Source: a virus. From it: DNA of 39,788 nucleotides. Shown piece by piece: positions 6,526-39,788 of the stretch. The translations under genes were made by a program, and so were the position numbers. Where the stretch lies: the IMG/VR virus record IMGVR_UViG_3300032431_000022. One strand, written 5' to 3'. The notes beneath the pieces are model-generated. The model did not search any database. It was not told the DNA's origin and saw only the letters and a list, made by a program, of their open reading frames with translations. Each line of letters begins with the position of its first letter. Position 1 is the stretch's first letter.

Positions 6526-7583
6526 ACAATATCCAGCCATTCAATTACGTTGGCCATTGGACTGGAACCGGCACCACATCAGGAGCCGCCGTATCGATCA
6601 CAACCGCGCCCTACACACGTTCGACCGTCGACAGCAGCAGCGGCACCACCAGTCGATTCCAGTGGCGACCATCGACCCAAACCGCCGCACCCGACAAACG
6701 CGTTCTGCGCCCCCGAAACCGCATGTCAGTCGCGTATTTAATCACGGTCAGGCCAACAACAGCCACCTGGCAAACACGACTAACGCGAATGGAGATCGCA
6801 ACCAACCCATTCGTAAGACCCGATCATGTGCATTGTGTACCTGGCCTTCCTACCAGTTTTTCTACGGTCGCTTCAGCGTCTGGCACGACATACACCGCAC
6901 ACTACCCTGGTGCGATTGTCGTGCCAAATCCAATACTAGAGTTGTCGTCCGGCAACCCTCGAGTTGTCAGCGATCGAATTGTCGGAAACTCCAGCGGCGA
7001 GGTCCGGACTAACGGTATCAGTGGGGATGTGCAAATATTCGACAGCGAGCGAATATTTGCTACGGGCATTTTTAGCCAGGGTTTTGCACCCTATACGCGG
7101 ATACTTTCGGCGTATCAACTTGTCCACGGACTGACTTCCCCAATCACAACAAACATCTGGCCGCAGGATACATTTACTTCCTGGGGTATGGCTCACATCG
7201 GAGCCAATACCGATTGGTGCCCACCGATCATCGTCGAGGCCAGTGATACAGTAGATTTCGAGGCGTCGATGTCACTCTGGATAATCGATCGACCCGTCTC
7301 GCCATTTACGCAAACCAATCTACGAGCGATTTCCGAGAGCGGTCAGCGATCGCTCACCAATCTAGCCGTCTCGCCACCCACGCCAGCCGCCCCGCCGTTT
7401 GCATTCTCGCGGCACCGCATACTCCCCGCTGGTCAATACTGGCGAACCCTTACCTACCCCGCAACCTACGCCTCCCCGACCGCTCGCTGGTCCGCCGTCC
7501 CAGGATCCTCCAGCACCGGATTCACGCCACCAATCACAGAGCCAAGTTGCCCATTCGTAATCACGCCAGGCGTCCCAGACTAA
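6522..7583 (+). CDS. Hypothetical tail protein (353 aa), Ser/Thr/Pro-rich
   Basis: In-frame ATG 6522 overlaps the preceding stop (ATGA). Last gene of the plus-strand operon. Its stop overlaps the intI stop convergently by 4 nt. Confidence 0.5.
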   Translation: MNNIQPFNYVGHWTGTGTTSGAAVSITTAPYTRSTVDSSSGTTSRFQWRPSTQTAAPDKRVLRPRNRMSVAYLITVRPTTATWQTRLTRMEIATNPFVRPDHVHCVPGLPTSFSTVASASGTTYTAHYPGAIVVPNPILELSSGNPRVVSDRIVGNSSGEVRTNGISGDVQIFDSERIFATGIFSQGFAPYTRILSAYQLVHGLTSPITTNIWPQDTFTSWGMAHIGANTDWCPPIIVEASDTVDFEASMSLWIIDRPVSPFTQTNLRAISESGQRSLTNLAVSPPTPAAPPFAFSRHRILPAGQYWRTLTYPATYASPTARWSAVPGSSSTGFTPPITEPSCPFVITPGVPD

Positions 7584-8590
7584 GCCCGCTTCCGTCGATG
7601 GATCTGCATAGTCGAAGGGTTCGCCATTAGCGTCTCCAGCGGGCTCAAAGCCGCCGTCGCCTGATGTTCGTCCGAGTGTACGTAAATTTCAGTTGTCCTT
7701 ATATCCGCGTGACCCAAAAGTTGCATCAACGTTCGCATCGGTACGCCTTGCTCGTGCGAGTGCGTCGCGTATGAATGCCGTAGCACATGCGATGTTACCC
7801 GCTTCATAATCCCCGCTCGCTCAGATGCCTCCTTGATCATCCTTGCAATATGATCAGGATGGCGATGATGACGACACAAAACTCGCTCGTGCCCAACGCT
7901 AAGGCAGTCGCTTGGAAACAGGAAATACCACATCAGCGACGATGCCGCACGAGGCGATTTCCGCCGATACGCATCGGGCAGCGAAACGCCGTTTGGATTC
8001 TGCGTTTGATCGCATCGGCAAACCACTTCGACCGATTGGATTTGACGCCGAACCGCTTGATGCACAATCTCCGGAAAGACCGTAAACCGCCACTTTTCGC
8101 CCTTGGTTGTTTTGATCGCCAATTGTTTCCGATCGAAGCTAATATCCTTCAGCCTCAACCCAACAGCATCACCAATCCGAAGCCCGCACCCGTACATCAA
8201 TTGAGCGACCAACAGATTCACCCCGTCAAGCTGCGTGAACAACCTACCGACCTCACCGACACTCAGCACCTCACGAGTGTGAGCCTCCCGCTTGGCCCGC
8301 ATCGCGCTAACATTCTCGATCGAGATCCCCAGTATCTCCCGATAGAGATACAGCACCGCTTGCAAAGCAGTATTCTGAGTACTTTTCGACACACCCTTAT
8401 CCGTCGACAACCAAGACAACCACCGCTCAATTTCCACCCGCCCACAATCCTTCGGATGCCGCCACTCACTAGCATTGTACGACCGCACATGCTGCATATA
8501 GTCGACACAATACCCCCAATAAGTCCGAAAAGTATTAGGCGATAAGCCCTGCAACTTAATCTTCCGCTCCATCTGTTCCTCAAGTTTCAT
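7580..8590 (-). CDS. intI: Integron integrase (IntI-type tyrosine recombinase, 336 aa)
   Basis: GVSLPDAYRRKSPRAASSLMWYFLFP...CRHH matches the IntI-specific insertion (IntI1: [26 protein letters not shown]...RRHH). Catalytic set present: GLRIGD, KGEKWR, HVLRHSYAT, LLGHADIRTTEIYVH. SPLE tail is like IntI1 SPLD. Start chosen at MKLEEQ, with GAGGAG upstream. Confidence 0.85.
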   Translation of the reverse strand: MKLEEQMERKIKLQGLSPNTFRTYWGYCVDYMQHVRSYNASEWRHPKDCGRVEIERWLSWLSTDKGVSKSTQNTALQAVLYLYREILGISIENVSAMRAKREAHTREVLSVGEVGRLFTQLDGVNLLVAQLMYGCGLRIGDAVGLRLKDISFDRKQLAIKTTKGEKWRFTVFPEIVHQAVRRQIQSVEVVCRCDQTQNPNGVSLPDAYRRKSPRAASSLMWYFLFPSDCLSVGHERVLCRHHRHPDHIARMIKEASERAGIMKRVTSHVLRHSYATHSHEQGVPMRTLMQLLGHADIRTTEIYVHSDEHQATAALSPLETLMANPSTMQIHRRKRA

Positions 8591-8652
8591 TATCCTGCGC
8601 TCCTCATGTATTATCCGTGTTAAAAATCGACTAATAAGTTGTTCGCAGGGCC
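8591..8652. other. intI-proximal site: attI candidate or short degenerate attC-like hairpin
   Basis: gttcgcagggcc (8641-8652) is the exact complement of 9008-9019. cctgcg (8594-8599) pairs with cgcagg (8644-8649). The arm ttagtcgat resembles the consensus arm ttgaccgat. Overlaps the intI SD. Confidence 0.45.
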
Positions 8653-8999
8653 TACTTGCGGCCTTTTGGTTTTTTAATTGCACTCGGTGACGAATCAAGC
8701 TCGTCTTGGATTCTTGCTTGCCTACGCGATGCCAACTCGCCATACGCATAAGCTGCGATGCCTTCCATATTTTCCGCTGCTCCGTAATGATTGGTCAACG
8801 TCGCCTCGGCTTCCATGCCGTCCTCGCGAATGGCACTAAATCGCATCACGAAGAGTAGATCCCGAATCTTGTACTTGTTCCGTAGTTCATACAATTCATC
8901 ACAAAATTTCACTACTCGCTCATTCGCAACCTCGAATGATTCGTGAGGTATGCTGACTTCGCGGTATTGCTGCATGTCGTTTTTAATTACTGATGTCAT
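8652..8999 (-). CDS. Cassette ORF A, hypothetical (115 aa)
   Basis: Start moved to the in-frame ATG at 8999, because the upstream part of the track ORF lies in the attC-like hairpin. Flanked by a complementary 12-mer pair. Confidence 0.6.
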   Translation of the reverse strand: MTSVIKNDMQQYREVSIPHESFEVANERVVKFCDELYELRNKYKIRDLLFVMRFSAIREDGMEAEATLTNHYGAAENMEGIAAYAYGELASRRQARIQDELDSSPSAIKKPKGRK

Positions 9000-9007
9000 T
9001 TGATTAC

Positions 9008-9104
9008 GGCCCTGCGAACAAAGCGTTGGACCGAAGCACCGGCCAAACATTGATTTGAATTTGAATCGTCAACCGGTGCATCGGTCAACTATTTCGTTAT
9101 CGGG
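9008..9104. repeat. attC-like imperfect hairpin a1 (97 bp)
   Basis: Stem gaccgaAgcaccgg / ccggtgcAtcggtc with a conserved A.A mismatch. Outer boxes end in AAC (9017-9019) and GTT (9096-9098). Confidence 0.8.
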
Positions 9105-9312
9105 ATGACCAACGCTCAACAATGATCGCAACTGTAGCGACGATCCCAAGCGCAATTAAGACCCCTGCAACCAAAGCTAATCCACCCCAGAAAGGGAGAG
9201 TGACCAACCACCATGGCCAATCAATGACTCCGCAAAGCTTTAGCGTGACAAAAACAACTCCAAGTAAACCAGTAACACCTATGCCGCCTGACGAGATTCT
9301 TTTATCTGACAT
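9097..9312 (-). CDS. Cassette ORF B, small membrane protein (71 aa, about 2 TM)
   Basis: Hydrophobic segments GLLGVVFVTLKLCGV and GGLALVAGVLIALGIVATVAIIV. The TAA stop lies inside the ATAAC box. Leader is ttatcgggtgatttATG. Confidence 0.65.
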   Translation of the reverse strand: MSDKRISSGGIGVTGLLGVVFVTLKLCGVIDWPWWLVTLPFWGGLALVAGVLIALGIVATVAIIVERWSSR

Positions 9313-9318
9313 AAATCA

Positions 9319-9412
9319 CCCGATAACAAAGCGTTCGACCGAAGCACCGGCCAAACATTGATTTGATTGTTAAACGTCAACCGGTGCATCGGTCAACTAT
9401 TTCGTTAGGATG
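9319..9412. repeat. attC-like imperfect hairpin a2 (94 bp)
   Basis: Near-identical to a1, a3 and a6. Left box cccgataac, right box gttaggatg. Confidence 0.8.
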
Positions 9413-9524
9413 ACGGAAAATCCAACCTAACAAACATGATGACAAACCATACAGCCACGCTGAACAGTAAGCCACAGCCAAAACCTAGCCAAAAAATCAA
9501 TCCGTTTTCGCCTTGCTTGTCCAT
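9405..9524 (-). CDS. Cassette ORF C2, 39-aa hydrophobic peptide
   Basis: MDKQGENGLIFWLGFGCGLLFSVAVWFVIMFVRLDFPSS, with one TM segment. The stop lies inside the TAAC box of a2. A short ORF, so uncertain. Confidence 0.4.
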   Translation of the reverse strand: MDKQGENGLIFWLGFGCGLLFSVAVWFVIMFVRLDFPSS

Positions 9525-9568
9525 TGTTTTTTGCTGACTAGATGACTGTTTTTTGCTGACTAGATGAC
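9525..9568. repeat. Exact 22-bp tandem duplication (9525-9546, 9547-9568)
   Basis: tgttttttgctgactagatgac occurs twice, read directly. It spans the stop of ORF C1 and the leader of ORF C2. Confidence 0.9.
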
Positions 9569-9934
9569 AACTTCTTCGGTCTTTATTTGCGGGCGAGGCT
9601 GCAAATCCAACGTTGACCACTCAAATTTTATTTGCAACGCCTCGTCGACGAAACTGTACTCTTCAATTCGCCCATCAAGAGGCGTCGTTTTCTTGACCTT
9701 TTGTCCGCCAAAGAGCCGGTTGATGATTGCGTGCTTTTCCGAATCCTTGAAACACAACCAAAGCGAGACGCGAACGCCTGGAGCACTGCGAGGATGTAGG
9801 GTTATTCGAAAGTCCCCTAGATCGTTGCGATGTTCGTATGCCCATTCCGTGGCTCGTAGCATTCCCTCACGCGCAAGAATCCACCCATGATCAATGCTGT
9901 TTTGTACTTCCGTTTCTTCCGCGATTGCACTCAT
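9560..9934 (-). CDS. Cassette ORF C1, hypothetical (124 aa)
   Basis: Start moved to the in-frame ATG at 9934, outside hairpin a3. Confidence 0.6.
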   Translation of the reverse strand: MSAIAEETEVQNSIDHGWILAREGMLRATEWAYEHRNDLGDFRITLHPRSAPGVRVSLWLCFKDSEKHAIINRLFGGQKVKKTTPLDGRIEEYSFVDEALQIKFEWSTLDLQPRPQIKTEEVVI

Positions 9935-9941
9935 AATTCCG

Positions 9942-10035
9942 CATCCTAACAAAGCGTTGGACCGAAGCACCGGCCAAACATTGATTTGAAGCTGAATCGT
10001 CAACCGGTGCATCGGTCAACTATTTCGTTATCGGG
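9942..10035. repeat. attC-like imperfect hairpin a3 (94 bp)
   Basis: Same core as a1. Left box catcctaac, right box gttatcggg. Confidence 0.8.
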
Positions 10036-10264
10036 ACAGATTATTTTCGACCTGTTCCCGCCAATTTTTATTTCTAGCGTCCAGTTCATCGGCAATTACC
10101 CGAAGGTCTTTTGCAGACAATGCGCCACGATCCTTGATCCAGAAATATTGGAACCCGTCATCTAGTGGCCCAATCTCTTTGTGCTTATTCAGACTCGAAA
10201 TCACTTTGCGTCGGTGAATCGCATCGTCAGTATTCTGTCCCCATTCGCGGTTTGAATCACTCAT
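10028..10264 (-). CDS. Cassette ORF D, hypothetical (78 aa)
   Basis: Stop lies inside the ATAAC box of a3. ATG is 14 nt from the GTT box of a4. Confidence 0.6.
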   Translation of the reverse strand: MSDSNREWGQNTDDAIHRRKVISSLNKHKEIGPLDDGFQYFWIKDRGALSAKDLRVIADELDARNKNWREQVENNLSR

Positions 10265-10270
10265 TTACTG

Positions 10271-10365
10271 CCCTATAACAAAGCGTTGGACCGAAGCCGT
10301 CCGCAGCCTTTAAATTGATTGATATTCTTTTGTTGACGGCATCGGTCAACTATTTCGTTATGCGG
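10271..10365. repeat. attC-like imperfect hairpin a4 (95 bp), divergent sequence with the same fold
   Basis: Stem gaccgaAgccgtc / gacggcAtcggtc. The distal stem changes compensatorily relative to a1, and the A.A mismatch is retained. Confidence 0.8.
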
Positions 10366-10385
10366 ACGGTTTCCCGCAAATCTCT

Positions 10386-10649
10386 TTATTCGATTTGCGT
10401 ATTTTTCTTAGCCTCAATGACATGGCTAACAAACGCCCATTCTTTCCAATCTTTCTGTACATCTCGGCATCCACGATTGGCTGCTTCGGCCATCGCCATT
10501 ACGTCGACGGTACAAAGGCATTGGTCTTTTGACGGTTCAAACGCACATCCCGCAAGCAATGCAATCGGCACGCTTAACTCGTCAGATAGTCCACCTGCTG
10601 TTTCTATTTCTTTTCGGTCATCGCCGTCGATAACAACAACATCGCACAT
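10386..10649 (-). CDS. Cassette ORF E, hypothetical acidic Cys-containing protein (87 aa)
   Basis: ORF bounded by a4 and a5, flanked by the unit-specific pair gttatgcgg / ccgcataac. Confidence 0.6.
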   Translation of the reverse strand: MCDVVVIDGDDRKEIETAGGLSDELSVPIALLAGCAFEPSKDQCLCTVDVMAMAEAANRGCRDVQKDWKEWAFVSHVIEAKKNTQIE

Positions 10650-10657
10650 AATCGCCG

Positions 10658-10751
10658 CCGCATAACAAAGTCATGCATCGAAGTCCCCGTCGACGCTTGT
10701 TTTGATGGTAAATCACCGAGCGGGGACTCGATGATGACATTCGTTATCGGG
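10658..10751. repeat. attC-like imperfect hairpin a5 (94 bp), most divergent sequence with the same fold
   Basis: tcat[g]catcga[a]gtccccg pairs with cggggactcgatgatga. Two single-base bulges sit on the plus-strand 5' arm. Confidence 0.75.
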
Positions 10752-10965
10752 ATGAAACGTCCGCGTCGATTGAATTGACGTGAACTTTCAAAATCATCGC
10801 CTCATACCATGGTATATCGATTCCTCTTGTTTCTTTGATCCACCGAGACTTCGCCCGCCCATCCAGGTACGCCAGCGGAGACACCAGCAATCCAACGAAA
10901 ACCACTATCACTATCGTCATGCCAAAGACAGAACAGAGAAACTTAAATACTTCAGACCAATTCAT
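10744..10965 (-). CDS. Cassette ORF F, small membrane protein (73 aa)
   Basis: TM segment FGMTIVIVVFVGLLVSPLAYL. Stop lies inside the ATAAC box. Same leader as ORF B (ttatcgggtgatttATG). Confidence 0.65.
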   Translation of the reverse strand: MNWSEVFKFLCSVFGMTIVIVVFVGLLVSPLAYLDGRAKSRWIKETRGIDIPWYEAMILKVHVNSIDADVSSR

Positions 10966-10971
10966 AAATCA

Positions 10972-11065
10972 CCCGATAACAAAGCGTTGGACCGAAGCAC
11001 CGGCCAAACATTGATTTGAAGTTGAACCGTCAACCGGTGCATCGGTCAACTATTTCGTTATCCCG
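10972..11065. repeat. attC-like imperfect hairpin a6 (94 bp)
   Basis: Same core as a1-a3. Left box cccgataac, right box gttatcccg. Confidence 0.8.
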
Positions 11066-11066
11066 A

Positions 11067-11744
11067 TCAAAACAGCACGCCTTGCGACAGTCGCTTGGCC
11101 GCTATCTCGCAATACTCTTCGCTGATCTCAATCAGCGTTGCCTTACGGCCTTCGGCTTTCGCCGCAACGCCGGTTGTTCCACTCCCCGAAAACGGGTCGA
11201 GGATTGTTTTGACTTCTTCGCCAGCATGCCCTATGCACCACTTCATCAAGCCTAAAGGCTTTTCTGTTGGGTGGCTTTTTCCGTTCGTGTGTGCTTCTAC
11301 CCTGCTCATCCTGAACGTCTTGCACGGCTTATCTAAAGTCGTCCAAGCCGCTTCAAAATCACTGCCACTAAACTCCTGAATCTTGTCCCATGTCAACCAG
11401 CACCTGGACGGCTTTACGCTAAAATAGTTTCCACCCCAAACGATGTGCTTGCCTGCCGCCTCTAAAATCGCATCCATTAACCATTGGCTTGGTGTTGCGT
11501 TATCCCATTGGAAACTATCAAACTCCTTTCGCTTCGCGCCTGCTTGCATTTGCATCTTGCCAACTCCAATCCCATACGGTGGATCGGTCAACAGAAGATC
11601 GAACTTCCCCAGGAAGGGTAAAACCTGCCGACAATCTGCGTTGTAAATCGTCACCGCTTCATCCTGATAGTACGGACGAAAGGGTACTGACGGGATAACA
11701 ATTGCATGAACCGGAGCAACCGGCGGTATTTCATTTTGAATCAT
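11067..11744 (-). CDS. DNA methyltransferase, beta-class N6A/N4C (225 aa)
   Basis: LLLTDPPYG precedes DPFSGSGTTGVAA, the motif order typical of beta-class N6_N4 methyltransferases. Start placed at MIQNEI, preceded by GAGGA. Confidence 0.85.
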   Translation of the reverse strand: MIQNEIPPVAPVHAIVIPSVPFRPYYQDEAVTIYNADCRQVLPFLGKFDLLLTDPPYGIGVGKMQMQAGAKRKEFDSFQWDNATPSQWLMDAILEAAGKHIVWGGNYFSVKPSRCWLTWDKIQEFSGSDFEAAWTTLDKPCKTFRMSRVEAHTNGKSHPTEKPLGLMKWCIGHAGEEVKTILDPFSGSGTTGVAAKAEGRKATLIEISEEYCEIAAKRLSQGVLF

Positions 11745-11772
11745 AATTTTTCCTCGGTTGACCCGGTTATGC
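11691..11772. repeat. Degenerate attC-like site overlapping the methyltransferase 5' end
   Basis: cgggataac (11691-11699) is the exact complement of the a6 right box. The following arm aacaattgcatgaaccggagcaaccgg resembles the consensus arm. gttatgc lies at 11766-11772. Confidence 0.4.
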
Positions 11773-11782
11773 AAAGCGTTCA

Positions 11783-12205
11783 TCAGACCGGTTTAACGTA
11801 TTCGAACTCGATCCGCGTTACCTCTGTTTCAGGACTACATTTCATGTGTCCAGCAAACATTTCAACAAACTCCTTGCCTGTCATGCCGGGAAAACCCTCC
11901 ATCTCGCATTCTCCACGACCGTAGCCAGAGCTTTGGAGCATAGTGTCAAGCGACTCAAACGTAACATCCACAACCCGGATTTGTCCCAGTCGCTGAATCT
12001 GTTCGCCGGGCCTAAGTCCCATGCACTTAACGCACGCGTTTAGAATCTGTCCCGGTTTAAGATTCTTCCATCCAACGCGACGAGTGACGGTTTTGGTCCG
12101 TTTCCGAATTTGGTCTGTCGTTAGGGCAAACGATATATTTCTCGGCACGATGAACAATCCAATGCAACCGAGTTGCGGGTAAAGGTTTTTGAAGTGGAAA
12201 ATCAA
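11783..12205 (-). CDS. ASCH-domain protein (140 aa)
   Basis: ISFALTTDQIRKRTKTVTRRVGW is an ASCH-like N-terminal motif. Confidence 0.55.
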   Translation of the reverse strand: MIFHFKNLYPQLGCIGLFIVPRNISFALTTDQIRKRTKTVTRRVGWKNLKPGQILNACVKCMGLRPGEQIQRLGQIRVVDVTFESLDTMLQSSGYGRGECEMEGFPGMTGKEFVEMFAGHMKCSPETEVTRIEFEYVKPV

Positions 12206-12241
12206 CTGGCCGCAACCGGTTGATTGGAAGCGTTCGTCGTA

Positions 12242-12580
12242 TTACGCAAACTGTTTAGCCGCGTAAATACGTTCGTAATTTGACCGCCTGCGATTCTGAA
12301 AATCCACGACTGATTGCACGCCCTCGAAATCGCACTCGTGAAGCTCATCCATCAGCGCGCCATGACAGTGGCAATGTAAATCGATTTCTTTAATCATGTC
12401 CAGACACGTTTGGCAAGTCCGATAGTCGCTAAAATCACCTTCCCAAAGTCCCTTGGCGTATTCGTGTTGCTCGCCTTTTTCGATAACACGCAAGCACTCA
12501 CTGCATTGATGATCCTTGCGGCCTTTAACGACCTTAGATTCGTAAAATTCTGGTGGGTTGTCCCAGTAGCAATCGCACAT
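12242..12580 (-). CDS. Cys/His-rich hypothetical protein (112 aa)
   Basis: Several CxxC and HCHCH motifs. AGGAG lies upstream of the ATG. Confidence 0.6.
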   Translation of the reverse strand: MCDCYWDNPPEFYESKVVKGRKDHQCSECLRVIEKGEQHEYAKGLWEGDFSDYRTCQTCLDMIKEIDLHCHCHGALMDELHECDFEGVQSVVDFQNRRRSNYERIYAAKQFA

Positions 12581-12665
12581 AACAAACTCCTAAAAGCGAT
12601 GGACCGAAGCCATTGATTAACGTTAATTGCTTAAAACATCTTCTAGCGACGGCATGAGTCATCGC
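12578..12665. repeat. Degenerate attC-like hairpin a7
   Basis: cataacaaa..aaagcgatggaccgaagcc resembles the consensus left arm. The stem 12596-12611 / 12651-12665 keeps the A.A irregularity. No clear right-hand GTT box. Confidence 0.4.
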
Positions 12666-12694
12666 AATCGTCTCCTGATTCATAAACCACGGGC

Positions 12695-13153
12695 CTACCT
12701 CACTTCTGAAATGATTACTGCGAGTTGCTCGTTAAATTCCATTTGCGTTACTTCGTTGTTTTTTAGTTTTTGAGTTAAAGTCACGCCATTGACATATGCG
12801 CGATCGATTCCGTAGTCGAACATTGCTTTTCTTGTTCCGTTAGCTTCGCGTTTTTCGCGGGCTCGTCGTTGCAAATCGGATTCTTGGCGACCCTTGTCGC
12901 GGGTGAACATAGCGGACGCCCGCACCACCAAAGCGATACGATCGTACTCATACGCCTTCGGTGGTTCGCGTCTACCGTGGGTCCAGTCGCCAAGCACGAA
13001 TAAAGCCTCGGAAAACTCAACGCCGCCGAGTACTGAAAACCAAACTTCCATCGTCGCTTTTAGGTCCGGTGATTTGTCCGAAAGCTGGCCAAGGAATGAC
13101 GGAAAAGCCACAAATAATTGCCTCGTAAATTCGGTAAATTGATTGGCATTCAT
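12695..13153 (-). CDS. Hypothetical replication-module protein (152 aa)
   Basis: Position after the DUF1376 gene. Weak resemblance to helicase-loader-type small proteins, not verified. Confidence 0.5.
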   Translation of the reverse strand: MNANQFTEFTRQLFVAFPSFLGQLSDKSPDLKATMEVWFSVLGGVEFSEALFVLGDWTHGRREPPKAYEYDRIALVVRASAMFTRDKGRQESDLQRRAREKREANGTRKAMFDYGIDRAYVNGVTLTQKLKNNEVTQMEFNEQLAVIISEVR

Positions 13154-13905
13154 GCGTCTGCTCCTGCGACAATTGGGATCTTGGGTGGTGATTTTTGAAA
13201 CCTCCCGCCGCTGGGAAACTGCTTCGGTTCCTGAGTTCGATGATCGCCGTTTAGTAGCAAATTCTTCGCGCCCTTAGTCATCGAAAACTCAATGATTTCT
13301 ATTGCTTCTGTCTCGTTTTTGGCGGCCCGGTCGAGGGCCATGATTTGAGATTCCTCAGCGGTCTCGGTCAACGGTTTTTGCTGTTCCGCAAGGTGCTTTC
13401 GCCACCGAGTCCAAGCCTCGGAAAACTTCATCGAATCAAAACCAGCAACCACCCGAGAGTGAGAGAGAGTAATTGAAGAAGAAGATGAAGATGAAGAGCG
13501 GTGTAACATCGGTGTTACATCTGCGTTACAACTACCGTTACTGATATTTTCCTTTCCGTTTTTCCTGTGTTTTGCCACTCTTACCTTTGTGCTCTTGCGA
13601 TCTTCTTCGTCTCGAACCATTCGCCGAGAATAAAAGGCACCGCGTTCATCAACCGAACAAACACACTTTTCAACAAGCTCGACAATGGCCTTCCTCGTAA
13701 CATCCGCGTTACCACCTACAGCCGCAGTCACGTCATCGACAGACCACACACTGGAACCGGTACCGAGAACGCCACGAGGCGAACATTCGAACATAAGGCA
13801 AAGCATATCTACCCACACGCCTCGCGCCGCATGGCTGCAACGACGGACGCATGGATCTTTCATCCAGTCACCTGGATAAAATTGGAACGCTGGCATCTTA
13901 CCCAC
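13150..13905 (-). CDS. DUF1376-family (YdaU-like) phage replication-associated protein (251 aa)
   Basis: N-terminal FQFYPGDWMKD...ARGVWVDMLCLMF matches the DUF1376 pattern. Contains a poly-Ser linker. Confidence 0.55.
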   Translation of the reverse strand: MGKMPAFQFYPGDWMKDPCVRRCSHAARGVWVDMLCLMFECSPRGVLGTGSSVWSVDDVTAAVGGNADVTRKAIVELVEKCVCSVDERGAFYSRRMVRDEEDRKSTKVRVAKHRKNGKENISNGSCNADVTPMLHRSSSSSSSSITLSHSRVVAGFDSMKFSEAWTRWRKHLAEQQKPLTETAEESQIMALDRAAKNETEAIEIIEFSMTKGAKNLLLNGDHRTQEPKQFPSGGRFQKSPPKIPIVAGADA

Positions 13906-14149
13906 GGCTAAATCCTTTTACCGACTCTGAATCAAACCACTTACTATTTTGGTCAGGACTAATAAATGACCCTGACCACCATTGCGATTTCCCGCAAATA
14001 CATTTGAGCCCTTGCTTCGATAACGCTCGCTCATCCTCGGTGTATCGACCACACCGCGAACAACGAGCCATCGCACCCGCATCATGACGAGCCGTCGCCG
14101 CAATGTGCGAGCCTCGTATCGTGATCGTCGTGGTGGGAGTTTCGATCAC
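13898..14149 (-). CDS. Small zinc-ribbon protein (83 aa)
   Basis: CSRCGR...CICGK motif. Coupled to its neighbours. Confidence 0.5.
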   Translation of the reverse strand: MIETPTTTITIRGSHIAATARHDAGAMARCSRCGRYTEDERALSKQGLKCICGKSQWWSGSFISPDQNSKWFDSESVKGFSRG

Positions 14150-15114
14150 GACTTAACCGTCGCTTCCAACTCGGCCTTGCGTTTGCTAAACGCGTTTCGA
14201 ATTGTGACCTTTTGCCCATCGGTAAACGTTCGGTTCTTTGCCTTTTGGTCCCAGTGCTTCCAGTTTCCGGTAAGCTGCGATAAATCGGCTACAGCATCAA
14301 GCGACATGTGTAGATCCGCAGCGATTGATTCCGGTAGAGCCTCGGGGGCCGCGTCGAGTGGGATAGATTGCCTAGGCTTTGTTTTCGTTTGATTCTCGAC
14401 CACCGGCAGCGGTTCCACTGTCGTTACCGTTTCGGCATCTACAGTTTCGTGATTGTCTTGGCTTTCGAAAGACATGCCGGAAACTCGCTCGAAAATCTTT
14501 GCGTACAATTTTCGTTTTGCCTTGCCTTGGATCGCGTCGAAGGTCGTGTAATCTTCGGCCTTTATCGGTATGCGAGTATCTTGCTTTTCGCTTTTCACGC
14601 ACTCGATAAAGCCGTCCCTGCCGTGAAATAACCAAGAGGCTGTCGCACCAACCAACGCGACCTTGGAGTCGAGTATTTCGGGAACCTCAAGATTGATCTG
14701 AAGGTCTCTTAATCCAGGAAAGTTTTGTAGCCTATTTTCATATCCTTCCTTCGTTGGATACAGATTGCCTGCGATTATGTTAATATTGTTTCCGGTTACG
14801 TCGAAGCCTCGCAAGAATGCCTGGATGCAAACATCGCGAACTATTTCAACGGGGTATCCAACAGGGCCATGTTTAGGTTTCTCGCGATCAGTTCGGAATC
14901 CGACAACGGTCCCCTGCAACGCCATCATGTCCTCCATCACCGCAGGGGTGCATAGAGACTGAAGCGTCCTTAAAGCTCTCGCCAAGACCAATGCTTTCGT
15001 TATTAGGTTTCCGTTTTTCGTAGCTTCGTCAAGATGCTTTTGCAATTCTTTTACGACCTTATCAATCAACTCGCTCGCATGTGGTTGATTGGTCGTTGTT
15101 AATTCATTACTCAT
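14146..15114 (-). CDS. Single-strand annealing protein candidate (RecT/Red-beta-like, 322 aa)
   Basis: Position in the recombination module next to the DUF1064 nuclease. Loose RecT-like central region. Not verified. Confidence 0.4.
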   Translation of the reverse strand: MSNELTTTNQPHASELIDKVVKELQKHLDEATKNGNLITKALVLARALRTLQSLCTPAVMEDMMALQGTVVGFRTDREKPKHGPVGYPVEIVRDVCIQAFLRGFDVTGNNINIIAGNLYPTKEGYENRLQNFPGLRDLQINLEVPEILDSKVALVGATASWLFHGRDGFIECVKSEKQDTRIPIKAEDYTTFDAIQGKAKRKLYAKIFERVSGMSFESQDNHETVDAETVTTVEPLPVVENQTKTKPRQSIPLDAAPEALPESIAADLHMSLDAVADLSQLTGNWKHWDQKAKNRTFTDGQKVTIRNAFSKRKAELEATVKS

Positions 15115-15413
15115 TTATTTACTCGACTCCATTGGGAAACAATTGACTGTAATTCTTTTTTGTTGCATGGCTCGAAAGTATGCGGGCATACCTCGGTACC
15201 ATTGCGGCCAGTAATCTTTTTGACGTCGCAGCGACCCGAACATTGTCCGGCCCACCGCACTCGTTCGCGTTGTGATTTGTGGTATTCGACGAGCGCCATA
15301 CACTCGACCATTGACTCGCTATCGAGTTGCCCGGCAGCGACCATCTGTCGACCGATCTCGAGCATCGGGGTGTCTCCCCAATCCTGCCTGAGTGGTGGTA
15401 ACACTCCGATCAC
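15111..15413 (-). CDS. Hypothetical Cys-rich protein (100 aa)
   Basis: Translationally coupled ORF in the early operon. Confidence 0.5.
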   Translation of the reverse strand: MIGVLPPLRQDWGDTPMLEIGRQMVAAGQLDSESMVECMALVEYHKSQRERVRWAGQCSGRCDVKKITGRNGTEVCPHTFEPCNKKELQSIVSQWSRVNK

Positions 15414-15808
15414 TGGGTAGCTCCTCGGTATTGCAAGACAACCGCCGTTTTTCCGTGCCGCGTCTCGCGTCGCATGTCCGTCTCGATGATCATGTAAACG
15501 TCAAGCAACTCACGGACACGACCGCATACCGTTGTTAAAGGCATCACCATCGATATTGATAGCTCGTCCCGCGTCGCACCCATCAAGCCGAGCTGCCGAA
15601 GTCGCTCCAGCACTCGATCACGATCGCCACCATGTCGTGGCTTGGTCGTATCGCGTACCGCGTTACGATTACGCAACCCGGCGTCCTTAGACTCCGCAGG
15701 CACCTCTTTACGAGCGGCATTGCGGGCGAGTGGCTTGTCCGTCTGCTGATGGTCGTAATGACCACCGGAAACCGGAGCCGCATCCATGTCAAAAAGTGTC
15801 GGTTGCAT
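15410..15808 (-). CDS. Winged-helix-like DNA-binding protein candidate (132 aa)
   Basis: C-terminal DRVLERLRQLGLMGATRDELS...TVCGRVRELL resembles a wHTH. Confidence 0.4.
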   Translation of the reverse strand: MQPTLFDMDAAPVSGGHYDHQQTDKPLARNAARKEVPAESKDAGLRNRNAVRDTTKPRHGGDRDRVLERLRQLGLMGATRDELSISMVMPLTTVCGRVRELLDVYMIIETDMRRETRHGKTAVVLQYRGATQ

Positions 15809-15813
15809 AATGT

Positions 15814-16197
15814 CTAGCTCTCCTTAATCTCTATGCCATGTTGTGCGAGCATTAGCCGCTTCTTTTGCTTGTACACCGCTGTCCGGTAGCCCTTGGAATC
15901 CTCGACCACTTCGAGACCTGTTTTAAGATCGACGTACACAAAATCAGCTATGTACTTTGCGTTGATCACAACCGGGAAAGCGACCTGTCGTCGAAGCCCC
16001 GAAATCTTTCCCGCCCGTATTAATAGTTGCAATTCTTTGTATCGCCGAGCCTCTTTTTTCGAAGCAAACCGAATCCCATCTACCTCTGTAGGTTTTGCGT
16101 GGTACTTATGCTCGCGGGATCCTGACCGCTTCGGTCTGGTCCCCTTTGGCTTTCGATCGCTGAGTAGCTTTGCAAGGATTGTTTTTTGGCGTGTCAT
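15814..16197 (-). CDS. DUF1064-family nuclease-like protein (127 aa)
   Basis: KYHAKPTEVDGIRFASKKEARRYKELQLL...ADFVY...VEDSKG matches the DUF1064 pattern. ATGA overlap with the upstream gene. Confidence 0.75.
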   Translation of the reverse strand: MTRQKTILAKLLSDRKPKGTRPKRSGSREHKYHAKPTEVDGIRFASKKEARRYKELQLLIRAGKISGLRRQVAFPVVINAKYIADFVYVDLKTGLEVVEDSKGYRTAVYKQKKRLMLAQHGIEIKES

Positions 16198-16655
16198 AGA
16201 GCACCTGCCTTTCGCTTGGCAACCCAGCACGGCTTTAGCTCTTTTTTGAGTTCGATCGTTTCCAACCGATCGCGACCGTCGCTCACCGTTATCGTTCGAA
16301 ATTTTGGCGGCATACCGTTGTTTGTTCGTTCAATTCTCTTATCAAAAAAATCAGCAGCAAGCACCGCAGCCCGCAGAGGCGTCAACGCCTCGCCATAGAT
16401 CACTTTGAGCATCTCGCGTCGATTCTCCGGCCAGCAATGCCACTCGTTACGCACCGCACTGTTGAGCCCCGCATCAACGCGTTGACGTTGCAGATCCTGG
16501 TAGACTTCCTCACGATGGATCGCAACCCGCATAGGAGCCTCGACACCCACCTTGACCCGTCCGTCCAGGACATCGCAGACCATCACTTGTATATCATCAC
16601 CGATCCGAATTACCTCACCCCGAGAGCGTCCTAGCACTAACATCACAAAGTCCAT
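16194..16655 (-). CDS. csrA: CsrA-domain protein with an approximately 100-aa C-terminal extension
   Basis: MLVLGRSRGEVIRIGDDIQVMVCDVLDGRVKVGVEAPMRVAIHREEVY is a near-canonical CsrA fold sequence. Start is at 16655 or 16643. Confidence 0.8.
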   Translation of the reverse strand: MDFVMLVLGRSRGEVIRIGDDIQVMVCDVLDGRVKVGVEAPMRVAIHREEVYQDLQRQRVDAGLNSAVRNEWHCWPENRREMLKVIYGEALTPLRAAVLAADFFDKRIERTNNGMPPKFRTITVSDGRDRLETIELKKELKPCWVAKRKAGAL

Positions 16656-16749
16656 TCTGTTAAAAAAACTATCCAAAACACACGGCGACCGAACCCAGTC
16701 GCTAACCTGCCAAAACCACTTGAGCAAGCCATCGAACGACGCGTGTTAG

Positions 16750-16817
16750 TACCGGGCGTCGGATTCGAACCAACGGATGGACTTTCAAGATCCACCTAGC
16801 CACCACGGCCACCCGGC
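16750..16817 (-). tRNA. tRNA-like gene, 68 nt, anticodon UGA, atypical D arm and very short variable region
   Basis: Canonical T arm GTTGG-TTCGAAT-CCGAC. Anticodon arm TGGAT-CTTGAAA-GTCCA. 7-bp acceptor with G.U pairs at both ends. No standard D stem. Confidence 0.45.
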
Positions 16818-16897
16818 AAATGATCATTCCTCGTAAATTGCCCAACAAAAATACATCCAAATCCCAACCGCAAACAGCAACGTAACTTCCATTGTTC

Positions 16898-17410
16898 TCA
16901 GACTCCTATGCAATCAAAATCGGCGTTAAATTGACGCAACATCAAATACATCGATTCGTCGACTTCCTCGTAGAAGTCTTTGACAACAACGACACAGCGA
17001 AAGTCCTGCGACTTGAAAAACAACTGGGCTTGCAGGTTGGTTTCTCGGACCTCGACTGTGATTCGCGAACGTAGGTGATAGGACATTTTGAAACTAAGCC
17101 GCTCGATCATCGCTGATCCGCATCCCTTGCGACGATGCTCGGCATCAACCGCGAAGTTGAGCAAATGTAGATGGCTCTTATGTAGCTCGTAGATCATGTA
17201 GCCAACGATCTTGCCACCGACCTCGCACACCATGCCGATACAGTCCCTCTGCCGCAGAGCCCGAGTAAATTCCGCCTCTGTCCAGGGATGCGAAAACGAG
17301 GCCCGCTCCATCGGAATCACGTATTCTAATAGATCGAGGTGATTCATCCAGCGAACGTAAGGAGTGTGATTCGCAGTTGCCTTTGTCGATTGTTTAACAG
17401 TTCCGATCAT
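16898..17410 (-). CDS. GNAT-family N-acetyltransferase (RimI-like, 170 aa)
   Basis: LLNFAVDAEHRRKGCGSAMIERL (acetyl-CoA motif A) and SFSHPWTEAEF. Confidence 0.8.
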   Translation of the reverse strand: MIGTVKQSTKATANHTPYVRWMNHLDLLEYVIPMERASFSHPWTEAEFTRALRQRDCIGMVCEVGGKIVGYMIYELHKSHLHLLNFAVDAEHRRKGCGSAMIERLSFKMSYHLRSRITVEVRETNLQAQLFFKSQDFRCVVVVKDFYEEVDESMYLMLRQFNADFDCIGV

Positions 17411-17604
17411 TGTTTCACCCAGCTTTTCTTTAACTCATAGGCCACACAGGGGACGCGGCGATAGTCTTCACCGGTCTTTGCTAAAAGAGTATCGCACGCG
17501 TTCGAAATCGCGTGCTGCGAATTGATTCCGTTGGTGTAGATCACCATCGAATCGTTACAAAAGACCACCCGAAACCACTTTGGCTTAACTACCAACGCGA
17601 CCAT
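17407..17604 (-). CDS. Hypothetical protein (65 aa)
   Basis: Internal ATG chosen to limit overlap with the upstream gene. Confidence 0.4.
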   Translation of the reverse strand: MVALVVKPKWFRVVFCNDSMVIYTNGINSQHAISNACDTLLAKTGEDYRRVPCVAYELKKSWVKQ

Positions 17605-17822
17605 GATTTCAAATCCTTTGTTTGTTCGATCTTCGGACCTGCGGGCATCTCTGCCCAGAACCGGACATCGACAGCCAAAAAGCCTTCCGCCGATGTCCAA
17701 ACACCACTATCGAGATAACCAAACCAAACCGACTCACCCAAGGAAGTTGTCTTGACCAAGACCATGATGTCCTCGTCGGGCAGCTCTTTATCAACACTCA
17801 CCCATGTAATCGTTTCGACCAT
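17589..17822 (-). CDS. DUF551-like protein (77 aa)
   Basis: WVSVDKELPDEDIMVLV...WFGY...RFWAEMP follows the DUF551 pattern. Confidence 0.5.
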   Translation of the reverse strand: MVETITWVSVDKELPDEDIMVLVKTTSLGESVWFGYLDSGVWTSAEGFLAVDVRFWAEMPAGPKIEQTKDLKSWSRW

Positions 17823-17852
17823 CGTTCGCTCCTCGTTTAAATTCCATTAAAA

Positions 17853-17892
17853 GTCGGCCTCAAGCCCGCATCCGTACCGGCTTGGAGCCGAC
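17853..17892 (-). terminator. GC-rich hairpin followed by a T-run on the minus strand (attenuator/terminator candidate)
   Basis: gtcggcctcaagcc / ggcttggagccgac, a 14-nt stem (10 pairs, central 4-nt internal loop) with a 12-nt loop. The minus strand continues ttttaa. Lies between the first and second early genes. Confidence 0.45.
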
Positions 17893-17926
17893 AGCAATAC
17901 CCGCCACCGTTGACGGGGAAGATCAG

Positions 17927-18238
17927 TTACGCCATCTTTCGAAAAATGCTCCGTGATTTGTAAACACGGGCTTGATTACGACCCAGTACTCGGCCAGCGC
18001 GAATCAGCCGGGCTTCGTAGATAGCGGCCTCGCGAGTAGTCTTTTTGGCTCGCTCGGTTCGGTATGCGTAGTAACAAGATGTGCAAAGTCCAAGCTTAGT
18101 GGCTGGCTTGCTGCACTCACAACCTTTCGAGTCGGTTCCTAGGCAAAGCCCAGTCTCAACACGTTCCCGAACTCGGGTAATGACTCTGGCCGCAGCGCGA
18201 CAATCTAAAACCATGATCAACTCTTCTGTAGGGTCCAT
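17927..18238 (-). CDS. First early-operon gene, Cys-rich hypothetical protein (103 aa)
   Basis: Start at the MDPTEE internal ATG. Divergent from the gene at 18444. Confidence 0.5.
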   Translation of the reverse strand: MDPTEELIMVLDCRAAARVITRVRERVETGLCLGTDSKGCECSKPATKLGLCTSCYYAYRTERAKKTTREAAIYEARLIRAGRVLGRNQARVYKSRSIFRKMA

Positions 18239-18443
18239 TGCTATGCCTTTCAAGTAAGTAACTGAAAAGCATCTTGCATCAATCCATGTCCAAATCCAGG
18301 ACGAATGCAAATGTACGTAGGGTGTGTGCATACGTCAATAACATTTATTCGCAAAACATACAATGTTTGCACACAGAGTGGACGCAAAGCCTTGCACGCC
18401 AAATGCTTATTGACTTTGAAGAATTTTTTGGGAAAGTGTCTGC

Positions 18444-20146: not shown

Positions 20147-20374
20147 ATGTCTCAGATCATCGATCACCCACAACTCGTCGATTCGCAAGGATCGACGATT
20201 ATCTACCAATCGATCCAGAAACTCGCGTACACTCGTCGCGAGGCGTCTAAGGTGACTGGCGTGTCTCTCAATCAGATCAAAGAGGCCGTTTCGATTGGCG
20301 AACTCAAAGCCAAAAAGAAGGGCCGCGAATGGATCATCACTGCTGCTGATTTGATCGCCTGGGTGGCTTCGTGA
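20147..20374 (+). CDS. xis: Excisionase-family HTH DNA-binding protein (75 aa)
   Basis: YTRREASKVTGVSLNQIKEAVSIGELKAKKKGREWIITAADLIAWV follows the Xis/MerR-type HTH pattern. Overlaps the int start. Confidence 0.65.
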   Translation: MSQIIDHPQLVDSQGSTIIYQSIQKLAYTRREASKVTGVSLNQIKEAVSIGELKAKKKGREWIITAADLIAWVAS

Positions 20375-21543
20375 CTTGTGTGTACCACGACGCCAACAAG
20401 GACGGTTGGCGGCTGGAAACATGGATCAGAGGCGTAAAGCGTAAGCTGTGGCTTGGGGCGATCTCCAAAGGAGCCGCTGCGAAAGTACGCGAAAACGTAC
20501 ACGCCTTGAAGCTCGCGGCGGAAACTGGCACCGCTCCCGAGCCACACGTTGCCAAGTGGGCCGCTGCAGTTGGTAAGCGATTGGCAGACCAGCTCGCTAA
20601 GTTGGGGCTTATCCTGCCTCGTGGCGAATGTGCTGCGTCGTTCACAGTCGAAACTTTGATGGATCGATACTTAGCGACCGAGCGAAACAAATCTTGGTCG
20701 GCATCGTATCGCGGTACATTCGAAAAGCTCAAGCAAGAGTTTGGGGATTACTTTGGCCAAGTCACGATTGATCGGATCACCGATTCGCACGCTAAAGACT
20801 TTGCCGCGAAAGTATATTCCGAGTTTGCTGAGAGTACCGCTGGAAGCAAGGTAAAGCGGGCTCGGCAATTGTTCGCCTTTGCGATCGACCTGCGATTGAT
20901 CGATAGTAATCCATTCCGCGCGGTTAAGGTAAAGACCGGTATCGACAAGACTAGGAAGGCTTACATCACACTAGACGCTGCCGAATTGATCCTAGACAGG
21001 CTACCAGACCAGCTCTGGCGAACGATCTTTACCTTTGCTCGGTTTGGAGGCGTCCGCATCCCCAGCGAGATCCTAACGCTCAAGTGGACCGCTATTGACT
21101 GGCATAACCACCGTATCACTATCACCTCACCCAAGGGCCGTAACTACGCGCACAGGGCAACTAGGGTAATACCGATGGTCCCAATGCTCAAGGATGCACT
21201 GACTGCATTGCATAGCCTAGCACCCGAGGGGGCTGTCTGGGTGTGCGATCGCTACCGGTCGACTAGCAGTTCCCAGTTCCGTAAGCCCTTGCTCCAGGCC
21301 ATCGAGAAGGCGGCGCTAGAGGCATGGCCCAAGCTGTACGTCAACCTTCGTGCGTCATGTCGTACAGACATGCTGAAGAAATTCGAACCACACATCGTCG
21401 ACGATTGGCTCGGACATGATGGCGCGGTAGGAAGTAAGCACTACGACCGCATCACTGAGGCTGATTTCGCTAAGGCCACCGCCCCCACAATCGCCCCCAC
21501 GTTATCAAAAAGCACTAGAAAAACCAGCAAAAAGCACGAATGA
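20371..21543 (+). CDS. int: Phage tyrosine integrase (390 aa)
   Basis: RFGGVRIPSEILTLKW (Arg box), LRASCRTD and WLGHDGAVGSKHY at the C-terminus. Preceded by Xis. Confidence 0.8.
   Translation: MTCVYHDANKDGWRLETWIRGVKRKLWLGAISKGAAAKVRENVHALKLAAETGTAPEPHVAKWAAAVGKRLADQLAKLGLILPRGECAASFTVETLMDRYLATERNKSWSASYRGTFEKLKQEFGDYFGQVTIDRITDSHAKDFAAKVYSEFAESTAGSKVKRARQLFAFAIDLRLIDSNPFRAVKVKTGIDKTRKAYITLDAAELILDRLPDQLWRTIFTFARFGGVRIPSEILTLKWTAIDWHNHRITITSPKGRNYAHRATRVIPMVPMLKDALTALHSLAPEGAVWVCDRYRSTSSSQFRKPLLQAIEKAALEAWPKLYVNLRASCRTDMLKKFEPHIVDDWLGHDGAVGSKHYDRITEADFAKATAPTIAPTLSKSTRKTSKKHE
21477..21501 (+). repeat. 25-bp direct repeat copy 1 (inside the int 3' end)
   Basis: caccgcccccacaatcgcccccacg, 24/25 identical to 21662-21686. 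Confidence 0.9.
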
Positions 21544-39373: not shown

Positions 39374-39788
39374 ATGTTTTCCTACTTCGTCCCAAACCAA
39401 ATCGTCGCAGAAAAGGCTAAGGTCGCCACGTTAGTTCGGCTGACGCCTGATGTATTGGCGCGGCTAGGGCTCTCACACGTCGGCAGCGTCGTTGCGAAAC
39501 AAATCTCGACTGGTCCGACGGGTAGCGGTGGATGGCTCTTGTATCGCGAGGCAGGCGGCCAAGGTGCAGGCCAATGCGATCGTTACCTCACCAACACCCA
39601 GACATGGCAGCCGATGGCATTTCCGTCGGACATTTGGATCGGATACGAAACCGCTCGCGGTCTCCCCGGCCCGCAATCGCTCGAGCGCGAAAGCCAGCTC
39701 CCCGGCCAATCTGTAACACTCGGCGATTCCAAGTCATGGCTCGTCCCTGCCGCAGTCGAGTACGACGACGATTTAGTCGTGTCTTGCC
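39374..39788 (+). CDS. 5' part of the junction-spanning ORF (continues at base 128 of the window)
   Basis: ATG 39374 is 288 nt (96 codons) upstream of the overlap start at 39662, so it is in frame with frame 1 of the window start. Confidence 0.5.
   Translation, partial: MFSYFVPNQIVAEKAKVATLVRLTPDVLARLGLSHVGSVVAKQISTGPTGSGGWLLYREAGGQGAGQCDRYLTNTQTWQPMAFPSDIWIGYETARGLPGPQSLERESQLPGQSVTLGDSKSWLVPAAVEYDDDLVVSC
39662..39788. repeat. Terminal overlap copy 2
   Basis: Identical to bases 1-127. Confidence 0.95.

Follow-up and report, generated by a model that had tools for sequence, protein, structure and literature searches.

The DNA analysed here (the window) is the complete 39,788-nt stretch of IMG/VR virus record IMGVR_UViG_3300032431_000022. 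Its minus strand carries a gene for an integron integrase (intI; start codon ATG at 8590-8588) and, upstream of it, nine gene cassettes delimited by eight intact attC hairpins and a decayed one; a short element that we identify as attI lies between intI and the cassettes (Table 1). Nucleotides 1-127 are identical to 39662-39788, an overlap of the assembly, and the window therefore represents a complete circular genome of 39,661 bp. The gene content, which includes a gpA-type large terminase, a lambda-family portal protein and a second integrase, is that of a temperate phage. A preliminary description of the array had left two readings of its polarity, a classical layout with the cassette genes running antisense to the usual direction, or an intI gene at the distal end of its own array.

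The product of intI scores 282.7 bits against NCBIfam TIGR02249 (cutoff 265). Its alignment to VchIntIA (2A3V) covers residues 39-320, the integron-specific insertion included, with the equivalents of W219 and H240/H241 conserved, and the catalytic residues R, K, H, R, H and Y are invariant in an alignment of the clade. It thus belongs to the IntI family of tyrosine recombinases and has the additional domain specific to integrons. Peptides taken from this single sequence did not occur in IMG/VR, and an alignment-based scan of the database found three viral genomes with an IntI homologue. The codon usage of intI is atypical for the phage (-0.09 log-odds per codon), the cassette open reading frames (ORFs) being mostly positive.

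The attC sites were located with a purpose-written hairpin finder that looks for AAC, a spacer, a gapped stem, a second spacer and GTT. Eight hits fell in the 3.2 kb between 9017 and 12234 and two elsewhere in the window (36 kb), and 20 shuffled versions of the array region gave none. The eight intact sites have fold z-scores from -2.1 to -4.6 and are imperfect hairpins of the attC type, bounded by AAC and GTT, with paired L boxes and extrahelical bases on one arm. Neither half of the exact attC sequences was found in IMG/VR or in JGI metagenome contigs. The boxes that flank each ORF are mutually complementary and cassette-specific, and five different pairs were found: GTTCGCAGGGCC (8641) and GGCCCTGCGAAC (9008) in cassette 1, which are 100% complementary, GTTAGGATG and CATCCTAAC in cassette 3, GTTATGCGG and CCGCATAAC in cassette 5, GTTATCCCG and CGGGATAAC in cassette 7, and GTTATCGGG and CCCGATAAC. 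Complementary cassette-specific boxes are a signature of integron cassettes; they are symmetric and leave the polarity of the array unsettled. Since the first cassette is 51 nt away from an intact intI, the array is not a cluster of attC sites lacking integron-integrases (CALIN).

The site farthest from intI differs from the others. Its minus strand has GAC in place of AAC, it has no significant fold (z = +0.74), and an 8-nt insertion, TAGGAGTT, supplies a ribosome-binding site; both of its half-sites can nevertheless be aligned by eye to the attC consensus. This fits a dead terminal attC, a two-armed remnant in which the cleavage triplet is now GAC, and does not suit an attI. The degeneracy that the preliminary description had ascribed to the most distal sites strictly holds for this last one only. 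The cargo of the array is phage-like and includes a DNA methyltransferase (PF01555, 7.7e-23; phrog_67) in cassette 7 and an ORF with a weak ASCH match in cassette 8. Cassette 1 is also present in two other contigs (L004 and L005), and the gene order of cassette 4 recurs in contig L178. A perfect 22-nt tandem duplication (TGTTTTTTGCTGACTAGATGAC twice, 9525-9568) lies between the two ORFs of cassette 3.

Table 1. Features of the window, with the array and its platform listed first.
Feature	Position	Strand	Details or evidence
intI (integron integrase, 336 aa), the gene that ends the leftward early operon	7580..8590	-	TIGR02249; 2A3V alignment
attI	8591..8643	+	Unstructured; conserved to the triplet; homology breakpoint; likeness to Shewanella
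Two direct-repeat motifs, GCGCAGGATA (8600-8591) and CACGGATAAT (8619-8610)	8591..8619	-	21 nt apart
Cassette 1: ORF 8652-9002 (116 aa, no family match) and attC1	8642..9096	-	
attC1, consensus type; bottom strand = minus	9017..9098	-	-21.1 kcal/mol, z = -3.6
Cassette 2: ORF 9097-9312 (71 aa, small membrane protein, phrog_1374) and attC2 (9325-9406)	9097..9404	-	
Cassette 3: ORFs 9405-9524 (39 aa) and 9560-9937 (125 aa), and attC3 (9948-10029)	9405..10027	-	
Cassette 4: ORF 10028-10264 (78 aa) and attC4 (10277-10359)	10028..10357	-	
Cassette 5: ORF 10386-10649 (87 aa) and attC5 (10664-10745)	10358..10743	-	
Cassette 6: ORF 10744-10965 (73 aa) and attC6 (10978-11059)	10744..11057	-	
Cassette 7: DNA methyltransferase ORF 11067-11744 and attC7 (11697-11780)	11058..11778	-	
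Cassette 8: ASCH-like ORF (about 11783-12145) and attC8 (12153-12234)	11779..12232	-	
Cassette 9: ORF 12242-12580 (112 aa, phrog_19515) and decayed terminal attC (12581-12672)	12233..12672	-	
Early leftward gene block running into the array	12695..18331	-	Contiguous minus-strand ORFs
Second, ordinary tyrosine integrase (PF00589 with Phage_int_M); gpA-type terminase; lambda-family portal	20371-21543; 21797-23794; 28099-29607	+; -; +	

The element next to intI (8591-8652, 62 bp) reads TATCCTGCGC...AATAAGTTGTTCGCAGGGCC, that is, TATCCTGCGCTCCTCATGTATTATCCGTGTTAAAAATCGACTAATAAGTT-GTT-CGCAGGGCC. It had been described as an attC-like site that lacks GTT on the minus strand, where GAGCGCAGG stands in the position expected for GTTCGCAGG. 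The replacement is there, but the element shows no significant fold on either strand (z = -0.4 and -0.6), and GAGCGCAGG belongs to a direct-repeat motif, GCGCAGGWTAT, that is kept in most of the relatives examined whatever their first cassette; GAGCGCAGGATA of the window is one of these repeats and not a mutated R box. The clade loci examined have here, in the sense of intI, a variable box ending in AAC, directly followed by AAYTTATT, then in most of them by GCGCAGGWTAT-like repeats, and then by the intI ATG. Conservation starts exactly at the triplet, and the sequence beyond it is variable cassette sequence. The conserved junction motif of the window is AATAAGTTGTT (8633-8643). In top-strand orientation its attI reads ...CGACTAATAAGTTGTT and resembles that of Shewanella, ...GCGCACTAATAAAATGTT, also given as ...CACTAATAAAATGTT (Qi et al., 2023, PMC9892861). 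We conclude that the 62-bp element consists of attI (8591-8641, to the crossover G) and the first 11 nt of cassette 1, and that an attI with its predicted crossover at a conserved GTT lies beside intI. The array thus begins where attI lies in classical integrons, next to the 5' end of intI, as had been proposed.

One or two GCGCAGGWTAT-like copies, spaced by about 20-21 nt, occupy the same place in most relatives. The proximal copy in the window overlaps the ribosome-binding site of intI. Judged by their sequence and spacing, the repeats are candidate accessory IntI-binding sites, and the proximal one could permit autoregulation. The possibility that they form a LexA box was rejected, as they are direct repeats and not palindromes. 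Relatives with a longer spacer between attI and intI have a stem-loop 20-40 nt before the intI ATG (L008, 2085-2124; L091, L092, L093, L094, L095, L114 and L177), which is not present in the window. Its pairing is held by compensatory changes (GGCTCTC/GAGAGCC, GGCCTC/GAGGCC, GTCTC/GAGAC and GGTCTTT/AAAGACC), and it may regulate intI. A search of IMG/VR with a general attI pattern gave ten hits, four of them chance matches in unrelated AT-rich phages and three of them attI-like junctions in loci without intI. A junction of this kind, in which CCTAAC is followed by AATTTATTAACCTGCGCGGCGCAGGTTATG and then by an attC and an ORF instead of intI, is found in L188 (2589-2700) and also in L189 and L184, loci with no IntI homologue that may descend from ancestors with intI.

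Pairs of near-identical phages locate the boundary between platform and cassettes. L092 and L114 are 99.87% identical over 9,063 nt, which start at exactly the AAC and run through intI and the downstream phage genes; the approximately 1.9 kb before the AAC show no homology, and the two arrays are unrelated. L093 and L094 break at the same triplet. A comparative cassette boundary of this kind had been named in the preliminary description as a means of deciding the polarity. Because the L092/L114 boundary lies at the AAC, the active crossover of the window is predicted between G8641 and T8642 on the plus (top) strand, or AA/C on the minus strand. Different arrays on near-identical backbones may also be taken as an indirect sign of IntI-catalysed cassette exchange. 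The three samples that hold the phage of the window have the same array (L004, L005 and L178) and give no boundary information because they are identical to the window.

The polarity of an attC can be read from its folded form. IntI cleaves the folded strand within 5'-AAC-3', the extrahelical bases of the bottom strand face the AAC arm, those of the top strand lie on it, and the outer two have a 6-bp stem between them (Nivina et al., 2016, PMC5027507). In the window, the 3' arm of the minus strand carries extra bases in all eight intact attCs, and in seven it alone does so. Most of these sites have a single C or G bulge and a T.T mismatch (in attC1, a C bulge on the 3' arm), and the full C...T pair is found on the 3' arm in attC8 and in attC5, the latter with a divergent core (-24.8 kcal/mol, z = -4.6). 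When 11 arrays were considered, the window included, 37 of 39 attCs had extra bases on the 3' arm only, two had them on both arms and none on the 5' arm only. The first bulge lies 8 nt from GTT in 47 of 49 attCs (13 arrays), and the usual pair of bulges is C...T, mostly 5-6 bp apart.

Known integrons served as controls for this call. In R100, the attC of aadA1 has the sense of aadA1 and is antisense to intI1; folding of its intI1-sense strand puts T and G bulges on the 3' arm. In the class 1 set (aadA1 of R100, qacL, aadA5, dfrA25, qacG2, aac(6')-Ib4 and catB3), the intI1-sense strand had extra bases on the 3' arm only in seven of eight attCs and on the 5' arm only in none. The same script gave the same call on the intI-sense strand of a cellular Planctomycetota integron (L099). 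Genome-scan patterns drifted to Campylobacterota integrons (36-40% identity), which were not used as controls, the finder being noisy in AT-rich loci. Because the extra bases stand on the minus-strand 3' arm in all eight sites and the controls agree, we conclude from the geometry that in the window the bottom strand of attC is the minus strand, the sense strand of intI, as in classical integrons. The position of the extra base given in the preliminary description and its account of the canonical placement were both correct, the latter according to the aadA1 attC of R100, the class 1 set as a whole and the published geometry (PMC5027507).

All the cassette ORFs, ten in nine cassettes, are on the minus strand; the strand had been reported correctly, and the count given, seven, was too low. 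Four of these ORFs have Pfam or PHROG matches, plus-strand ORFs of the array have none, and codon log-odds show a weak preference for the minus-strand ORFs. The genes are thus on the attC bottom strand, and not promoterless genes on the top strand to be expressed from the cassette promoter Pc. Read in the sense direction, a cassette consists of C, the hairpin, the GTT box, a ribosome-binding site and ATG (in some cases already within the hairpin), the ORF, its stop codon and ...AA. The genes start within the hairpin or 12-28 nt past it, and they end at the crossover or at most 8 nt away. Two details of the earlier account agree with this: ATGs follow shortly after the GTT box (at 12-16 nt, against the 14-16 nt given before), and four stop codons (9097, 9405, 10028 and 10744) lie inside the (A/C)TAAC box. 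TAA forms the last three bases of four window cassettes, cassette 2 among them. Judging from the relative orientation of sites and genes, the arrangement in these phages is a classical platform with the genes flipped within the cassettes.

The arrangement is not confined to the window. The closest IntI homologues are 52-71% identical, and about a dozen related phage or prophage loci share the layout. All homologues that could be placed in context belong to phages or prophages (L001, L002/L003, L006, L007, L008, L175, L176, L177 and L183), three of these loci being IMG/VR viral genomes. A single homologue could be linked to a named host, on a contig of a Pirellulaceae metagenome-assembled genome (66% identity), and the hosts of these phages are probably Planctomycetota. 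The longest ORF was on the intI strand and directed towards intI in 34 of 39 cassette intervals (11 arrays), and all gene calls run towards intI in L001, L002, L006-L008, L175, L176 and L183. Conversely, in the cellular Planctomycetota integron (L099/L072; IntI 38% identical) the hairpins have the same geometry and the genes run away from intI, the start codon of the first gene abutting attI. Moreover, 14 of 54 attCs carry a Shine-Dalgarno sequence and an ATG in their loop, and the ORF continues through the 3' arm and the GTT box, which encode its first 13-20 codons. Such sites include attC7, whose loop holds the ribosome-binding site and ATG (11744) of the methyltransferase gene, and others in L002 (7247-7328), L007 (125-206), L008 (198-281 and 563-665) and L094 (2350-2432). 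Only two of the three frames are used, ...P-I-V... in eight cases and ...C-S-S/T... in six, with none in the third.

The orientation of the genes would be unremarkable if the minus strand were instead the functional top strand. The cassettes would then be of the ordinary ORF-then-attC kind, with attI near 12.6 kb, intI after the last cassette and the 62-bp element as a decayed terminal attC. The order of ORF and hairpin and the stop codons in the AAC box look conventional when read in this way, and two shared ORF bodies start at the GTT of the preceding hairpin and have different hairpins in front of them. However, the extrahelical bases would then stand on the wrong arm in 37 of 39 sites, a call that the controls validate, and fourteen genes would lose their start codons. 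The supposed terminal attC is unstructured and conserved across phages up to the AAC, the very triplet at which near-identical phages diverge, and the site farthest from intI can be recognised as the remnant of an attC with two arms, not as an attI. We consider this explanation highly improbable. Of the two readings offered in the preliminary description, an intI gene at the distal end of its own array is contradicted by the hairpin arm, the conservation of attI and the breakpoint, and the classical layout with antisense cassette genes is upheld by the hairpin geometry, the conservation of the element and the breakpoint at the triplet. Insertion of canonical cassettes by top-strand recombination was considered as well and rejected, as it would have inverted the hairpin geometry too, which is not seen.

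We regard as established the identity of the integrase, the polarity of the hairpins, the position of attI and the breakpoint beside it, the orientation of the genes and the layout shared by related phages. From these features, it seems probable to us that the locus is a complete and probably active integron of a temperate phage, with a classical platform and with cassette genes inverted relative to attC. An inert fossil could, in principle, have the same appearance, if a fragment of a host integron had been captured once and the orientation were a by-product of the pick-up. The decay of the terminal attC, the atypical codon usage of intI and the identity of the array in the three samples holding this phage would suit such an origin. 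Yet the layout is kept across IntIs that are 52-100% identical and in different phage backbones, intI is intact in all the related loci, box complementarity is upheld in every cassette, and near-identical phages have entirely different arrays, with the break at attI. We therefore give the fossil explanation very little credence.

Some observations weigh against an active integron with inverted cassette genes, at least in the simple form given above. The core of one attC is 100% identical between L002 and L007 from exactly GAAC, and the box changes after GTT; the methyltransferases that follow are about 78% identical. Different hairpin cores precede one and the same ORF body and GTT box in the pairs L002/L094 and L094/L114. 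This separation of core and gene does not agree with the simple form, because a single bottom-strand crossover cannot part a core from its gene. In addition, the window's consensus attCs contain a single true bulge together with a symmetric T.T mismatch, and their strand bias may be weaker than that of relatives with two bulges. Finally, sigma-70-like sites were rarer than expected by chance in the promoter scan, so that the early block is a presumed source of transcription.

The movement of cores is not limited to these pairs. We found 16 pairs of attCs whose cores are at least 90% identical and whose flanks are unrelated on both sides, some of them from phages with IntIs 52-70% identical. 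The cores form families, in which the same core, 92-97% identical, occurs between unrelated cassettes of phages whose IntIs differ to this extent. One family holds four of the eight intact attCs of the window (attC1, attC2, attC3 and attC6; 9017-11059), and shared cores are also present at L002 8415, L175 6398 and 6757, L176 1998 and L183 6563. Core identity was tried and rejected as a guide to cassette linkage, since the core families are common to unrelated cassettes. Possible sources of the reassortment are occasional top-strand events, a completed second strand exchange of two synapsed hairpins (swapping hairpin tips), repeated cassette genesis and ordinary phage mosaicism.

An extension of the classical polarity would make both ends of the hairpin exchange points, through top-strand recombination or a second strand exchange, so that cores reassort and some of them act as portable modules of ribosome-binding site and start codon. 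The 16 pairs speak for it, as do the breakpoints at both hairpin ends in L002/L007, L002/L094 and L094/L114 and the use of two of three frames by the loop-embedded starts (8, 6 and 0). The informative pairs are few, however, and ordinary phage mosaicism through short homologies could yield the same breakpoints. Homogeneous attCs between unrelated cassettes are, in any case, typical of chromosomal integrons, and the Vibrio cholerae repeats (VCRs) of Vibrio show them without any need for core exchange. Taken by itself, exchange at both ends appears quite unlikely to us. If true, it would imply top-strand or second-strand exchange by IntI and would offer a mechanism for the concerted evolution of attC sites. 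A broader picture can be drawn, in which phages of probable Planctomycetota use a private integron to shuffle early accessory genes (DNA methyltransferases and small proteins without a known function, for example), with a polarity opposite to that of all bacterial cassettes and no useful exchange between the pools, and in which cores are independent ribosome-binding-site and start-codon modules exchanged at both ends; we put it forward as doubtful, though somewhat less so than exchange at both ends in the form just described.

Returning to the preferred reading, a probably active integron with inverted cassette genes, recombination would proceed as follows. IntI would cleave the minus strand of attC within 5'-AAC-3' at its right-hand end in plus coordinates (for attC1, between 9096 and 9097), and new cassettes would enter between G8641 and T8642, at the promoter-distal end and directly before intI. 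Junctions of excised circles are predicted at 9096/9097 and the equivalent positions, not at 9019; the circle of cassette 1 would join ...CTATTTCG (9096) to TTCGCAGGGCC (8642). For a cassette to be a self-contained gene, the hairpin must be assigned to the gene behind it, and bottom-strand cleavage at AA/C predicts exactly that. The cassette genes and intI have the direction of the early operon, and expression would come from read-through of it; because the array sits inside that operon, no Pc promoter would be needed in the platform. As the final gene of the early transcript, intI would be coupled to early phage transcription. The cassette pool may be private to these phages, because ordinary bacterial cassettes would insert antisense, and vice versa, which bears on the isolation between phage and bacterial cassette pools. 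Within the operon, moreover, the recombinogenic strand would be the non-template one, so that attC might fold more readily during transcription; in a highly transcribed operon such a dependence can be put to the test.

A long block of minus-strand genes, which starts at about 18.3 kb, ends with the array and intI. The promoter scan of the window placed a promoter-like site at 18338-18310 and none on the plus strand near attI or intI, and no strong minus-strand terminator was found by scanning between the early block and intI. A plus-strand terminator-like hairpin with a T-run (8643-8665) lies just inside cassette 1 and is directed away from intI; it could block antisense transcription into the array or be due to chance. 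Both recombinases, IntI and an ordinary integrase, are likewise present in L002, L175 and L176. In the window, GC skew gave no clear replication origin, and neither Rfam matches nor tRNA genes were found. Directly upstream of the array in L001, a gene of the HTH_36 family contains five iteron-like repeats (CGACCGTGGGGCCA; 6966-7065) at a spacing of 21-22 nt, probably a replication origin beside the integron. No close DNA relative of the window was matched among 50,697 GenBank phages.

The phage arrays share with classical integrons (class 1 integrons and sedentary chromosomal ones such as L099) the IntI-specific insertion, an attI that abuts the 5' end of intI, the AAC/GTT triplets and complementary cassette-specific R boxes. 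In both, the extrahelical bases of the intI-sense strand face the AAC arm, the first bulge is 8 nt away from GTT, and bulges are mostly 5-6 bp apart. The phage arrays differ in the direction of the cassette genes, which occupy the attC bottom strand and point to attI and intI; further, a platform promoter is neither needed nor evident, the host replicon is a phage, and an attC precedes its own gene, often holding its ribosome-binding site and start codon. Cassette orientation is normally accounted for by a single rule, that bottom-strand selectivity serves to put promoterless genes downstream of Pc. In the phages the components of recombination are those of an integron, and the logic of expression (Pc and top-strand genes) is not; recombination geometry kept and coding polarity reversed across many arrays would mean that the two can be uncoupled. 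Individually reversed cassettes, for example those with toxin-antitoxin genes, occur in chromosomal integrons as a minority within forward arrays and have their own promoters; they too have a gene antisense to the attC top strand, whereas here reversal is the rule for whole arrays.

Co-directional intI and cassette genes are also a feature of the inverted integron-integrase of the Treponema type (Coleman, 2004; PMC3607928; PMC4889954). In that type it is intI that is inverted: it lies ahead of the array, and its transcription runs towards attI (Wu et al., 2013, PMC3607928; Cury et al., 2016, PMC4889954). Transcription of the phage intI, in contrast, leads away from attI and runs opposite to the attC top strand; intI itself follows the array, and it is the gene within each cassette that is inverted. 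The phages would thus represent a third route, besides the Treponema solution, to co-directional intI and cassettes. The older "inverted integrase group", which includes Planctomycetes, may have held such prophages without their having been dissected. Our full-text literature search found no description of a phage-borne IntI group or of arrays with genes uniformly on the attC bottom strand. Qi et al. (2023, PMC9892861) reported integron components from phages: a cryptic prophage with a Shewanella-type integron, a P1-like phage with class 1 mosaics, pieces of the chromosomal integrons of hosts, and attC clusters that lack intI. These cases resemble ours in that integron components are carried on phage or prophage DNA, but here a distinct IntI group has a fixed place in the early region of several backbones and a uniformly reversed coding polarity. 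Integrons, earlier known in phages as passenger fragments, may thus also be a gene-shuffling device of the phages' own in the early accessory region, with a bearing on the diversification of accessory genes, possibly including anti-defence genes.

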